A DNA stretch of 64,000 bases from contig JAVKJV010000008.1 in NCBI GenBank assembly GCA_031458775.1, positions 3,823-67,822 on the forward strand. Direction: 5' to 3'. The translations under genes and the position numbers were made by a program. This document shows, piece after piece, positions 6,459 to 44,583 of this stretch; positions within the stretch are counted from its first letter, which is position 1; every line of letters starts with the position of its first letter. This DNA comes from Candidatus Fervidifonticultor quartus. GTDB taxonomy: Bacteria; Sysuimicrobiota; Sysuimicrobiia; Sysuimicrobiales; Humicultoraceae. The notes under the pieces are model-generated. The model had not been told where the DNA came from. It was given only the letters and a program-made list of their open reading frames with translations, and searched no databases.

Positions 6459-7337
6459 CTACTGGCTGCAGCGCGCCGTACCGATATCGCGGAACGACTT
6501 GCCGGCTTCGGGGATGAACTCCCACGCGTAGCCCGCCGCCTCAAGCTCGAGCCGGAGCACGCCAAACGTGCCGGACTGGCGGACTTCGCTGTGCGCGGCG
6601 AGCGTGCGAAACGGGTAGTGACTGCGGCCGCCGGTGCCGATGACGAACTGCCTCACACCACGGTGGGGGTCGAGGCGGCCCTGGGCGTCCATCGGCGCGA
6701 AGCGTTCGTAGAGATGGTCGTGCCCTGTCAGCGCGACGTCCACGCCGGCCGACGCCAGCACCTGCCACATCGCCTGCAGTGCCGGATCGCTCCCGTGCAG
6801 GCCCGAGCTGAAGCGAGGATGGTGCCAGTACGCGACGGTGCACGCGGCGCGGCTCCTGTCCAGGTCCCGCCGCAGCCACTGCATCTGCGGCGAATCGGGG
6901 CCGCAGCCGATGAGCCGGCAGTTGCTGTTCAGGACGATGACGTGCCAGGAGCCGAGGTCGTAACTGTAGTAGCCGAGCCCCGGCTCGCCGGCCGCGGCGC
7001 CGAAGTAGCGGAAGTAGCCGGCCGCGCCGGGCGTGTAGTACTCGTGATTGCCAACCGACGGCCGCGTGCGCGCGCGGTGCCGTCCCCACGACGGATGGTA
7101 GCAGTTGGCGAACTCGTCATCGGTGCCGCGCTCGTAGACGTTGTCTCCGGTGGTGAACACCGTACCGTCGATCGCGTCGAGAAGGCGGGCTGTGGCTTCA
7201 TCACCGGGGCTCTGGCAGCTCGCGATGTCTCCGGCGCCAACCAGTACGGCCGGCGTCTGCGCATGCAGCGCGCCGCGACGCGATCCGGGAGGGAACATAC
7301 CGGCGAGCAGTATTGCGGCAACGACGACGCTCGCCAT
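6459..7337 (-). CDS. Secreted calcineurin-like metallophosphoesterase (purple acid phosphatase-like)
   Basis: GAGDIA, GDNVY, GNHEY, WHHP, GHDHLYER; signal-like N-terminus. The longer 639-aa ORF extension is not credible. Confidence 0.88.
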   Translation of the reverse strand: MASVVVAAILLAGMFPPGSRRGALHAQTPAVLVGAGDIASCQSPGDEATARLLDAIDGTVFTTGDNVYERGTDDEFANCYHPSWGRHRARTRPSVGNHEYYTPGAAGYFRYFGAAAGEPGLGYYSYDLGSWHVIVLNSNCRLIGCGPDSPQMQWLRRDLDRSRAACTVAYWHHPRFSSGLHGSDPALQAMWQVLASAGVDVALTGHDHLYERFAPMDAQGRLDPHRGVRQFVIGTGGRSHYPFRTLAAHSEVRQSGTFGVLRLELEAAGYAWEFIPEAGKSFRDIGTARCSQ

Positions 7338-7341
7338 CGGC

Positions 7342-7507
7342 AAAAAGAAAAACCTGACGCGACCGGGCCGGGGAAGGCAGATGGGGATGCGACGGTGCGC
7401 CTCAGTTGCCCGCTGGGCGCCGCGGGAAATCCCACGTCGCTGGTCGCCAGACGCCGTGCCGGATTCGGCGGCTGGCGGGTTCTCCCCCGGGGTCCCGGCC
7501 GCGTCAG
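7342..7507 (-). ncRNA. Unidentified structured RNA (about 155 nt) closed by a long stem and followed by a U-tract
   Basis: CUGACGCGGCCGGG pairs with CCCGGUCGCGUCAG, then CCGGGGGAG/CUUCCCCGG; internal hairpins at 7445-7477 and 7397-7420; most stem mismatches are G-U on the minus strand; followed by UUUUUCUUUUU. Confidence 0.55.
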
Positions 7508-7555
7508 ATCTGCACGCGACAGGACTGGTGGCAAGCCGTCCGACGGGCGCCCCGG

Positions 7556-7590
7556 AGAAAGAAAACGCGAGCGCGATTGGAAGCACTCGC
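7556..7590 (-). terminator. Intrinsic terminator, expression platform of the riboswitch
   Basis: GCGAGUGC-loop-GCGCUCGC stem followed by GUUUUCUUUCU. Confidence 0.8.
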
Positions 7591-7604
7591 CCTCGCTTGT
7601 GCTT

Positions 7605-7689
7605 CCTCTTCGGCAGCCCGGCTGACCACGTTGTGCGTGGTCCCGCAGCTTTGCGTCCCCGGATTGCTCCGGGTTTGCCCGTTCGGAGG
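7605..7689 (-). ncRNA. Cyclic di-GMP-I (GEMM) riboswitch
   Basis: Minus strand GGGCAAACCCGGA-GCAA-UCCGGGGACGCAAAGCUGCGGGACC...GGUCAGCCGGGCUGCCGAAG matches the GEMM-I consensus with GNRA loop; G at the position equivalent to G20. Confidence 0.9.
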
Positions 7690-7715
7690 GTTCCTCTCCC
7701 TATTCGATTATTTTC

Positions 7716-7744
7716 ACCATACACCATGATCGTCATTCTGGCAA
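7716..7744 (-). promoter_or_regulatory. Sigma70-type promoter driving the riboswitch leader
   Basis: TTGCCA (7744-7739), 17 nt, TATGGT (7721-7716) in an AT-rich patch. Confidence 0.7.
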
Positions 7745-7953
7745 CAAGAAGTTTGCCGGCCCGACCTTGTGCAGCGACGAGTCGAGAAATCTGATGGCGA
7801 TTTCCGGGAGTATCATCGCAGGAATGTGTTGTGCGTCTGAGGCCGCAGCCGTCCGGGCACGGTAGTCCCTGCCATGATACCGTCTGGCCCGCGTCACCTA
7901 CCAGCCCGACCGTGCACACCCGCCGACGGTCGGGCACCGGGAGGAAGTACCAC

Positions 7954-8370
7954 GTGGCGATACGAACTCGGCTAGCAATGGCGCGCGCCGGTGTGCTGTT
8001 GCTGGTCATCGCGCTGGCCACATCGGCGTGCGGCGGGCCGGTGCCCGGTGCACGCCCGCGACCCAAGCGCGAGGTCGTCCGGTCGACGCCCGGGCCGAGC
8101 ACACCGGTCGTCATCGAGATCTTCGGCACCCCGGGCACCAGGTTCGGTGGATCGTACGGGGAGATCGACGCCGCCAAGAGCGTCGAGGGCGCGGTGCCGG
8201 CGCGCCTGACGTTCGAGTTCCGGCGGGCCTTCTCGATTGCGCTGCAGAAGCGCGTGCCCGTCGGCGAACTTGGAATGCAGGTCATGGTGGGGGGCAAGCC
8301 CGTGGGACGGGTCAGCACGACGAAAGCGTTTGGGGTCATCACGTACAAGCACGGCATCTCGTCCCCATGA
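7954..8370 (+). CDS. Hypothetical lipoprotein
   Basis: RBS GGAGG before GTG 7954; hydrophobic signal ending ATSAC; beta-rich mature domain. Confidence 0.7.
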   Translation: MAIRTRLAMARAGVLLLVIALATSACGGPVPGARPRPKREVVRSTPGPSTPVVIEIFGTPGTRFGGSYGEIDAAKSVEGAVPARLTFEFRRAFSIALQKRVPVGELGMQVMVGGKPVGRVSTTKAFGVITYKHGISSP

Positions 8371-8412
8371 CGGCGCACGATCGGTCCACGTCACCGTACC
8401 TCTCGTGAGGCC

Positions 8413-9153
8413 ATGAGCACCATCGCCCCCGAACAGGTCGCCCAGTACCTCGTCCGCTGGCTCCGTGAGCGTGCCGATGAGGCCGGCGCGACCGGCGCGG
8501 TGGTGGCCGTCTCCGGCGGCGTGGACTCGGCGGCGGTCGCCGGCCTGTGCGTCCGCGCATTCCCGCAGGCTGCGCTGGGTGTCCTGCTGCCATGCCACAG
8601 CGACCCCAGAGACCTGGCCGATGCCGAGCGTATCTGCGGCGTCCTCGGCCTGCCGCACACGACCGTTGTGCTGGACGGCGCCTACGACGCGCTGGTCGCG
8701 GCGCTGCGCACGTCGCCGCACTACGCCGACTACCACGTGGCGCTCGCCAACCTGAAGCCGCGGCTGCGCATGACGACCCTCTACTACTTCGCCAACCGGA
8801 TGAACCGTCTCGTCGTCGGTACGGGCAACCGCAGCGAGGCCTATGTCGGCTACTTCACCAAGTACGGCGACGGCGGCGTGGACGTGCTGCCGCTGGCCAG
8901 CCTCGTCAAGTCCGAGGTGCGGGTGCTCGCCGCGCATCTGGGCGTGCCGGCCGACATCGTCGAACGAACGCCCACCGCCGGGCTGTGGCCCGGCCAGACC
9001 GACGAGGGCGAGATGGGGCTGACGTACGCGGTGCTCGACGCCTACCTGTTGACCGGACACGCACCGGCAGACGCGCGCGCGCGCATCGAGCAACTCCACG
9101 AGAAGAGCGCACACAAGCGCCGCACACCCCCGATTCCGGACATCCCGCGCTGA
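8413..9153 (+). CDS. nadE: NH3-dependent NAD+ synthetase
   Basis: SGGVDSA, NLKPRLRM, TGNRSE, GYFTKYGDG, PTAGLWPGQTDE, HKR. Confidence 0.95.
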   Translation: MSTIAPEQVAQYLVRWLRERADEAGATGAVVAVSGGVDSAAVAGLCVRAFPQAALGVLLPCHSDPRDLADAERICGVLGLPHTTVVLDGAYDALVAALRTSPHYADYHVALANLKPRLRMTTLYYFANRMNRLVVGTGNRSEAYVGYFTKYGDGGVDVLPLASLVKSEVRVLAAHLGVPADIVERTPTAGLWPGQTDEGEMGLTYAVLDAYLLTGHAPADARARIEQLHEKSAHKRRTPPIPDIPR

Positions 9154-44507: not shown

Positions 44508-44583
44508 TGGTGGCCCCAGGGGGATTCGAACCCCCGTTTCGGCCTTGAGAGGGCCGCGTCCTGGTCCCCTAGACGATGGGGCC
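44508..44583 (-). tRNA. tRNA-Glu (anticodon CTC)
   Basis: GGCCCCA acceptor stem, anticodon loop CTCTCAA, GTTCGAATC T-loop, encoded CCA; 76 nt. Confidence 0.97.

Follow-up and report, generated by a model that had tools for sequence, protein, structure and literature searches.

A conserved, structured RNA domain placed behind a c-di-GMP-I riboswitch in one family of the candidate phylum CSP1-3

The window analyzed here, a 64,000-nt stretch of the genome of Candidatus Fervidifonticultor quartus, carries on its minus strand a real, conserved, structured non-coding RNA domain of ~157 nt that represents a new RNA family. In one family of CSP1-3 bacteria, this element is obligately placed under a c-di-GMP-I riboswitch, of which it is most likely the regulated product. 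RNAs of this kind, i.e., non-coding RNAs gated by a riboswitch, are known, and it is the family itself that is new. On balance, we favor the view that promoter, riboswitch and element make up a self-contained non-coding RNA gene of ~370 nt, in which c-di-GMP would decide whether the 3′ domain is made.

Genomes, Search Models and Alignments

The genus Candidatus Fervidifonticultor belongs to the candidate phylum CSP1-3 which, in the available part of its description, is named Sysuimicrobiota and comprises one class and one order (PMC11604079); because of this taxonomic structure, 'phylum' and 'order' searches yield the same 94 genomes. The same paper reports that genes are transcribed in chemoautotrophic enrichments of Sysuimicrobiota. 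The source genome (G000; 3.7 Mb, 94.5% complete) is one of the 34 genomes of the host family (f1), to which 60 further genomes from six other families were added. A covariance model, R1, was built from 17 sequences and run on all 94 genomes, G000 included. Copies of the element are found at 34 places (the window, 16 loci from relatives and 17 further loci), which amount to 32 distinct sequences from eight genera; these 32 sequences form the alignment A3. One unpublished genome, G022, contributes a row to each of the alignments A1 and A3, and counts as one of the 22 element-bearing genomes and as one of the four phosphatase-linked loci discussed below; the conclusions are independent of it.

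The Riboswitch Module

The following features lie upstream of the element:

7716..7744, minus strand: promoter, TTGCCA-17 nt-TATGGT (promoter scan; both hexamers conserved in the 17-sequence alignment)
7608..7688, minus strand: c-di-GMP-I aptamer (covariance-model scores; mean column conservation 0.92)
7554..7607, minus strand: expression platform (terminator scan; helix covariation in relatives)
7606-7599 paired with 7586-7579, minus strand: antiterminator (pairing kept through two-sided changes in relatives)
7596-7587 paired with 7576-7567, followed by the U tract 7565-7554, minus strand: terminator (the scan flags 7590-7567 and the T run)
7539..7553, minus strand: post-terminator motif GGGrnGCCCGUCGGA, 15 nt (mean conservation 0.84)

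The promoter scan yielded two sites against 0.2 expected. The promoter at 7744-7716, upstream of the riboswitch, appears to be of the sigma-70 type and the sole conserved promoter; from its position, transcription would start near 7709 on the minus strand. The aptamer scores 71 bits with RF01051 (canonical c-di-GMP-I, clan CL00126; cut-off 35) and 64.4 bits with RF03167 (cut-off 59). Where the model of the GGC variant calls for G, the window aptamer carries the canonical A in the RF03167 alignment; the orthologues flip among RF01051, RF03167 and RF03168 at similar scores, so that the variant label carries no weight. The terminator and antiterminator helices both stay paired despite two-sided changes, for example in the G009 row of the 17-sequence alignment. 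With a score above the family cut-off and mutually exclusive platform helices, the upstream part can be assigned, on sequence grounds, to the canonical c-di-GMP-I riboswitches.

The 3′ strand of the aptamer P1 shares two G residues with the antiterminator. When this P1 is enforced, the terminator fold is favored by 3.2 kcal/mol, whereas without P1 the terminator and antiterminator folds are within 1.2 kcal/mol of each other, which gives a weak lean to an OFF switch. The post-terminator motif is part of the riboswitch module, outside the element, because it is also present behind a paralogous riboswitch (G010:C133) that lacks the element. Conserved along with the element are both promoter hexamers, the aptamer, the two helices of the platform and the post-terminator motif.

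Anatomy and Fold of the Element

The element and the spacer that separates it from the riboswitch module consist of the following parts:

7510..7538, minus strand: variable spacer (mean conservation 0.51; zero columns at 0.9 or more)
7534-7529, minus strand: TTGCCA within the spacer (not conserved)
7520-7514, minus strand: spacer stretch able to pair with the 5′ strand of P1 (duplex prediction)
7353..7509, minus strand: the element, a conserved 3′ domain of ~157 nt (fold z, conservation, covariance model)
7507-7494 paired with 7367-7354, minus strand: P1, 14 bp (minimum-free-energy fold)
7490-7482 paired with 7376-7368, minus strand: P2, 9 bp (minimum-free-energy fold)
7477-7445, minus strand: P3 hairpin CGCCAG.CGCCG / CGGCG.CUGGCG (minimum-free-energy fold)
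inside 7465-7457, minus strand: P3 loop UCCGGCA (invariant in the alignment)
7440-7377, minus strand: 3′ sub-domain (fold and alignment)
7433-7424, minus strand: hairpin GGG-AUUU-CCC (minimum-free-energy fold), which lies in a variable stretch and is peculiar to the source genome
7420-7397, minus strand: invariant hairpin GCGCC.CAG / CUG.A.GGCGC (minimum-free-energy fold; never varies)
7388-7377, minus strand: unpaired C-rich stretch (fold and conservation)
7390-7380, minus strand: invariant unpaired GCAUCCCCAUC (fold and alignment)
7342..7352, minus strand: U tract after P1, 11 nt with 10 U, the likely 3′ end of the RNA (read from the sequence)

The minus strand from 7509 to 7353 folds with an energy of -100.6 kcal/mol (z -4.06; 0 of 200 shuffles as good), compared to a z of -1.39, with 20 of 200 shuffles as good, for the plus strand. 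The z of the sense strand is below that of the antisense strand in 31 of the 32 distinct homologues (medians -3.5 vs -2.2), and the G-U pairs that are frequent in the element fit the minus strand as the sense strand. The preliminary description of this DNA, made from the letters alone, had favored the same strand, and these statistics bear it out. The 14-bp and 9-bp stems and the three internal hairpins that it listed all recur in the minimum-free-energy fold, its borders of 7342-7507 agree with the BLAST conservation limits given below, and the U tract, the ATG 4 nt (GCCG) downstream and the lack of a purine-rich Shine-Dalgarno sequence are seen as claimed.

The same description had pointed to the TTGCCA at 7534-7529 as a possible separate promoter of the element. 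This hexamer is not conserved and lacks a -10 partner, and the promoter scan places no site there; the proposal is therefore abandoned. A pairing between the spacer and the 5′ strand of P1 was also considered as a switch and rejected as too weak: z is negative in 30 of 32 sequences, mostly from -1 to -3, but the duplexes are only modestly better than shuffles.

Conservation and Covariation

BLAST against 40 relatives detects the element in 16 of them at 75-90% identity, with sharp borders that correspond to positions 40 to ~200 of the query 7545-7338, i.e., 7506 to ~7346. The element has a mean column conservation of 0.81, above the value for the spacer and above the 0.35 of the next 82 nt downstream. 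With R1, the element is found in 22 of the 34 f1 genomes (21 of 33 without G000), at 85-173 bits in the relatives, and in 0 of the 60 genomes from the six other families; the 'phylum' search with R1 adds one hit, of 24 bits (E 0.0099). Scanning metagenome contigs with a pattern yielded 48 loci, 11 of which are true by the covariance model, with the other 37 taken as chance.

The preliminary description had proposed a structured RNA that ought to show conservation and covariation among homologues, and both are present. With the structure taken from a single aligned sequence, that of the window, and the aligned sequences being kin, 83.8% of the A3 cells are paired, compared to 37.0-46.5% when the partners are shifted by 1-3 columns; two-sided changes are seen in 16 pairs, against a shuffled mean of 10.9 (1 of 500 shuffles reaches 16), and the covariation score of 0.146 vs 0.112 is reached by 0 of 500 shuffles. 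Compensatory changes are present in P1, P2, and P3. In P1, the nine inner pairs form in nearly all sequences, P2 is 86.8% paired, and P3 is 95.9% paired with five pairs changing on both sides; the pair 16:154 is seen as GC, GU, CG, UA, and UG. Pairing in the helices of the variable stretch is poorly maintained (47-79%), and the hairpin at 7420-7397 never varies in the 32 sequences and hence is uninformative on pairing.

Across the eight genera, 37 positions are invariant and another 26 are nearly so. The invariant positions form three clusters, namely the P3 loop UCCGGCA, the motif G.GCA.CG and the unpaired C-rich stretch. The genus g4 has a short form from which ~45 nt of the 3′ sub-domain are cleanly deleted while the rest is kept.

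These patterns bear on the view that there is no RNA feature here at all, only chance folding of GC-rich DNA or part of an open frame of 639 codons (6459-8378). The frame does span the element and GC-rich DNA does fold well by chance; however, the fold z of -4.06 with no shuffle as good, the sharp conservation borders, the compensatory stem changes and the frame-shifting indels in relatives are all at odds with this view, and the same frame also crosses the bona fide riboswitch, so that we regard it as scarcely credible. Protein coding was rejected since most rows show indels of 1-2 nt dispersed over the conserved blocks and no frame is kept on either strand; the 639-codon open frame is an artefact of high G+C.

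Comparison with Known RNA Families

No Rfam 15 model (4227 models, E up to 10) matches the element, either in the window segment 7200-8000 or at eight homologous loci. A scan of the whole window at the Rfam gathering cut-offs likewise leaves the element without a match. The scan included 6S, SRP, raiA, ykkC, NiCo, both c-di-GMP classes and the small ribozymes, none of which falls on the element, and the lack of resemblance to known families reported in the preliminary description thus extends to the whole of this collection. Two other identities were considered. A second, enlarged c-di-GMP-I aptamer was rejected, clan CL00126 having no match on the element, as was a repeat or mobile element, the element being single-copy in G000. 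In the literature, supplementary files aside, we found no description of the element RNA.

Link to the Riboswitch and Genomic Context

An aptamer of the c-di-GMP-I clan is located ~95-120 nt upstream of the element at 33 of the 34 places (the window, 16 of 16 loci from relatives and 16 of the 17 further loci), and at the only place without one, the contig ends 24 nt before the element. The platform-specific signature is present in 22 of the 34 f1 genomes, the same 22 that carry the element, co-occurrence counts that overstate independence because all homologues are kin within one family. At one locus, G010:C133, this leader, aptamer, platform and post-terminator motif all recur; ~75 nt further on, a Shine-Dalgarno sequence precedes the ATG of an ORF that is rich in Cys, and the element is absent (best R1 score 8.7 bits with filters off). 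Since the module leads an ORF at this locus, it is portable, and the element occupies a position that can also be taken by an ORF. Behind each of the nine other aptamers in G000, an apparent ORF start, as judged by eye, is present within ~130 nt.

Pfam was run on 97 candidate ORFs at 23 genome places, with the following outcome downstream of the element:

G009, G001, G010, G012, G041: Fur-family gene and ZnuA, same strand, both scored
G020, G018, G008: ZnuA alone scored
G047: Fur alone scored
G000, G014, G022, and an N-terminal piece in G015: metallophosphatase
G003: HMA P-type ATPase
G002: PCuAC, convergent
G005: SCO1, convergent
G004: ISL3 transposase, convergent
G011: luciferase-like gene, convergent
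G019: M20 peptidase, convergent
G044: YibE/F, convergent

At G015:C66 and G046, no downstream Pfam family was found. The window's own genus shows five different downstream contexts among six species. Thus, no single conserved gene or operon has the two domains in its leader, as the downstream genes differ; what recurs is an aptamer with a terminator and, behind them, a conserved non-coding segment that lacks a fixed ORF. The preliminary description had wavered between a stand-alone RNA as the output of the switch and a second riboswitch; the near-constant presence of the upstream riboswitch and the lack of a fixed downstream gene favor the former, shorn of the separate promoter that had been suggested for it.

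The convergent genes of six relatives lie 16-307 nt past the element and raise the possibility of an antisense-acting riboswitch, i.e., read-through into the convergent gene, with the element as mere intervening sequence. The c-di-GMP family is the one most prone to face convergent genes (152 antisense vs 2,554 sense riboswitches in the available text of PMC9943018). However, the convergent genes belong to six different families, same-strand genes are found at sixteen other places, conservation is confined to the element itself, and P1 with its U tract would block read-through; we consider this explanation very improbable.

The gene immediately downstream in the window is:

6459..7337, minus strand: calcineurin-like metallophosphoesterase, secreted, 292 aa (Pfam PF00149, E 1.1e-07)

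This phosphatase is present in eight of the 34 f1 genomes and adjoins the element in four. It is located on other contigs in G009, G011, G019 and G044 and was not found, with the query used, in the other 14 element-bearing genomes, so that in 18 of the 22 it is either unlinked or was not found. Accordingly, the phosphatase is a neighbor, not a fixed partner, of the element. In the window, its ATG is 4 nt past the U tract without room for a promoter of its own, so the element is also a leader there.

This arrangement is one of several observations that fit another explanation, in which the element would be a new class of aptamer, the second in the series, with P1 and the U tract as its terminator, and the tandem forms a two-input gate on the downstream gene (the phosphatase in the window; zur-znuA elsewhere, by read-through). 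Covarying stems beside invariant loops and junctions are an aptamer-like signature, P1 leads directly into a T tract in 15 of the 32 homologues, the spacer may pair with the 5′ strand of P1 as an antiterminator (with the negative z values given above), and the available text of PMC9481103 describes tandems of unlike riboswitches, each with its own terminator. Nevertheless, no known aptamer class matches the window or the eight homologues even at E up to 10, and the anti-P1 pairing is weak and GC-driven. No conserved gene is gated: the downstream gene is convergent in six genomes, the phosphatase has the scattered distribution described above, and the Fur-family gene of the zur-znuA pair is preceded by a promoter-like site and a TGAGAA-N3-TTCTCA, operator-like palindrome of its own in five of the 17 aligned loci, so that the gated gene would have to vary by genome. 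We therefore hold a two-input gate to be unlikely, albeit worth keeping in view, and retain the self-contained RNA gene as the preferred reading.

The 3′ End, Transcript and Possible Targets

A T-rich tract follows P1 in 15 of the 32 homologues, and the other 17 have no clear T tract. P1 encloses 130 nt, which is unusual for a terminator, and the terminator scan does not flag P1 with its U tract because the enclosed loop exceeds the 8-base limit of the scan. No RNA run is on record as containing the window's own sequence, and it was not found in the contigs of one hot-spring metatranscriptome run; a single 375-nt contig there, from a relative, matches 7359-7489 and 7599-7689, and the 107 letters that separate the two matches are unlike the window. 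Its length and ends are near those of the predicted unit, yet it reaches ~20 nt beyond the inferred start; given that contigs cannot show ends and that DNA carry-over is possible, it is a weak hint that riboswitch and element are on one RNA.

Another explanation is that the element has no effector role and is a long structured tail of the riboswitch, serving as a second terminator or insulator, a 3′ stabilizer or the body of a merRNA-like sponge. Long c-di-GMP-I platforms with two terminators exist, such as Bc1 (PMC11218506, available text), merRNA provides the precedent of a proposed c-di-GMP store (PMC3627812, available text), and P1 with its U tract would end transcripts before convergent genes. 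On the other hand, 37 invariant and 26 nearly invariant positions are needless for a plain terminator or stabilizer, the 7-nt loop and most of a ~40-nt stretch are kept across eight genera, and the first terminator already ends the short form. The clean deletion of ~45 nt in g4, with the rest kept, likewise has the look of a modular functional RNA, and a structured tail thus appears improbable compared to the self-contained RNA gene.

If the domain acts in trans, its targets are not apparent from exact antisense words. Among words of at least 11 nt in G000, the best match is a 17-mer at C107:7472, inside an apparent coding sequence, which is about chance level for a GC-rich genome; no trans target beyond such chance-level matches was found with exact words in G000. 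As for RNA-binding partners, Hfq is marginal in G000 (28.8 bits, cut-off 27), and CsrA was not found in this 94.5% complete genome.

Relation to Known Systems

A riboswitch is nearly always taken to be the leader of a protein gene, and to our knowledge, the cases in which an RNA is the riboswitch-regulated product are few (EutX/Rli55, merRNA and a c-di-GMP-II aptamer with a group I intron). EutX/Rli55 is a non-coding RNA of Enterococcus and Listeria that is controlled by an AdoCbl riboswitch and sequesters an ANTAR protein via paired hexaloop hairpins. It resembles the present unit in that the output of a terminating riboswitch is a regulatory RNA, with the ligand deciding on the 3′ part. The ligand and the phylum are different, however, and the fold of the element, inspected by eye, has no pair of hexaloop hairpins of the ANTAR-site kind.

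Nearest in kind is merRNA of Bdellovibrio bacteriovorus, described in the available text of PMC3627812 as a 445-nt sRNA with a c-di-GMP riboswitch and without a conserved ORF behind it, massively expressed, proposed by its authors to store c-di-GMP, and showing no conservation outside Bdellovibrio. In both cases, a c-di-GMP riboswitch is inside a discrete non-coding RNA that is restricted to one lineage; however, as far as that text goes, merRNA is defined by its massive expression, whereas the present unit is known from its sequence. Furthermore, the conserved terminator and antiterminator between the aptamer and the 3′ domain make the element conditional, in contrast to the storage proposed for merRNA.

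Three other arrangements share some features with the unit, again going by the available text of the sources. Riboswitches of unlike classes arranged in tandem, such as a glycine or an AdoCbl riboswitch combined with c-di-GMP-I (PMC9481103), also consist of two RNA domains in series, each followed by a stem and a U tract, and a c-di-GMP-I riboswitch takes part, in the present unit as the first domain; the second domain of the unit, though, matches no known class, and no gene is consistently gated. Bc1, a c-di-GMP-I riboswitch of B. thuringiensis whose long platform has two terminators at a distance of 28 bp (PMC11218506), similarly has a c-di-GMP-I aptamer followed by two terminator-like structures; its terminators are simple, whereas in the present unit ~210 nt separate the two structures, the second being formed by the stem that closes a conserved, multi-helix domain of 157 nt. 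In C. difficile, a c-di-GMP-II aptamer is coupled to a group I ribozyme (PMC9481103), so that a c-di-GMP aptamer is likewise wired to a second functional RNA domain and not to a simple platform; there the second domain is a group I intron, whereas here it is a 157-nt domain without a match to Rfam ribozymes, behind a class I aptamer that has its own terminator. As far as Rfam can tell, the element has no sequence kinship to any of the compared systems.

Proposed Mode of Action and Implications

In the self-contained RNA gene that we favor, riboswitch and element would be co-transcribed, and the binding of c-di-GMP would decide whether the polymerase passes the first terminator and hence whether the 3′ domain is synthesized. 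If the lean in the fold energies is taken at face value, c-di-GMP would favor termination, and the domain would be made at low c-di-GMP. P1 and the U tract probably end the long transcript in the roughly half of the homologues that have the tract. Our preferred guess is that the 3′ domain acts in trans through the unpaired UCCGGCA loop and GCAUCCCCAUC (7390-7380), by base pairing with mRNA or by binding a protein. There is also a minor chance that the 157-nt domain represents a new class of functional RNA, either a ligand-sensing aptamer or a catalytic RNA, in series behind the c-di-GMP-I riboswitch; if so, the unit would be an all-RNA, two-signal device with an RNA activity, not a protein, as its output.

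The scope of the finding is one bacterial family, uncultured and from hot springs and soil, with ~34 known copies of the element. Within this scope, it offers a natural case of RNA as riboswitch cargo, in which a canonical c-di-GMP-I switch and a conserved structured RNA are combined in eight genera, and the presence of the same switch module before an ordinary ORF in one relative makes the case clean. At ~160 nt, the element is a compact candidate for probing for a ligand, a partner or catalysis. For the uncultured CSP1-3/Sysuimicrobiota themselves, c-di-GMP signaling gains a probable post-transcriptional arm.

Ligand specificity and distribution of the aptamers

Competition within the Rfam clan assigns the orthologous aptamers, that of the window (7608-7688) and those of its relatives, to the canonical c-di-GMP-I family (RF01051) or to the variant models RF03167 (GGC) and RF03168 (UAU) in a near-random manner. 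At the position that defines the variants, the window aptamer has the canonical A, and its score against RF01051 is 71 bits. In this case, the variant labels should not be taken to indicate a changed ligand specificity.

The 3.7 Mb genome of Candidatus Fervidifonticultor quartus encodes 10 c-di-GMP-I aptamers, all of which score above the RF01051 cut-off and which are located on contigs C1, C24, C67, C75, C94, C101 and C116; three of these, at positions 175666, 176954 and 181194 of C1, lie within 6 kb. By eye, the ORFs located 3′ of the aptamers include those for putative sigma-factor-like, HD-domain, response regulator and glycosyltransferase-like proteins.

Genomic context and additional copies

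The genes on the other side of the riboswitch promoter, and one unrelated RNA gene of the window, are the following:

7955-8370, plus strand: putative gene for a small lipoprotein (by eye, its signal peptide ends in ...ALATSAC)
8413-9153, plus strand: putative nadE-like ORF (our reading)
44511-44583, minus strand: tRNA gene (61.4 bits), bearing no relation to the riboswitch and the element

Transcription of the lipoprotein gene and the nadE-like ORF diverges from that driven by the riboswitch promoter. A nadE-like N-terminus is also found upstream of the unit in six relatives (G001, G004, G018, G046, G047 and G049), and in four of the six a lipoprotein-like ORF is present there as well.

A paralogous copy of the riboswitch module was detected in the relative G010:

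Contig C133 (locus L128), about 1095-700, minus strand: riboswitch module leading a Cys-rich ORF (N-terminal start MSKQDFGNDPLDEL)

The element itself is represented by two non-identical copies on two contigs of genome G015 (3% contamination), namely G015:C236:535-708 and G015:C66:25-201, each with a phosphatase gene close by. These copies represent either a true duplication or two strains within one bin.

Gene turnover and metal homeostasis downstream of the element

The ends of structured RNA genes are frequently used as integration sites. In genomes G000-G005 and others, the DNA directly 3′ of the element forms a gene-turnover hotspot: within one genus, six species display five distinct downstream contexts, one of which is an ISL3 transposase. 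The majority of the downstream neighbors are metal-homeostasis genes (Zur/ZnuA, PCuAC, SCO1, cupredoxin and HMA P-type ATPase).

In Bc1, the dual-terminator c-di-GMP-I riboswitch of B. thuringiensis, the platform DNA is reportedly bound by Zur (PMC11218506). At five loci of the relatives (L014, L015, L023, L024 and L025), an operator-like palindrome, TGAGAA-N3-TTCTCA, is located 60-130 nt 3′ of the element, directly behind a −10-like hexamer and upstream of a Fur-family gene and znuA, an arrangement that looks like putative Zur autoregulation.
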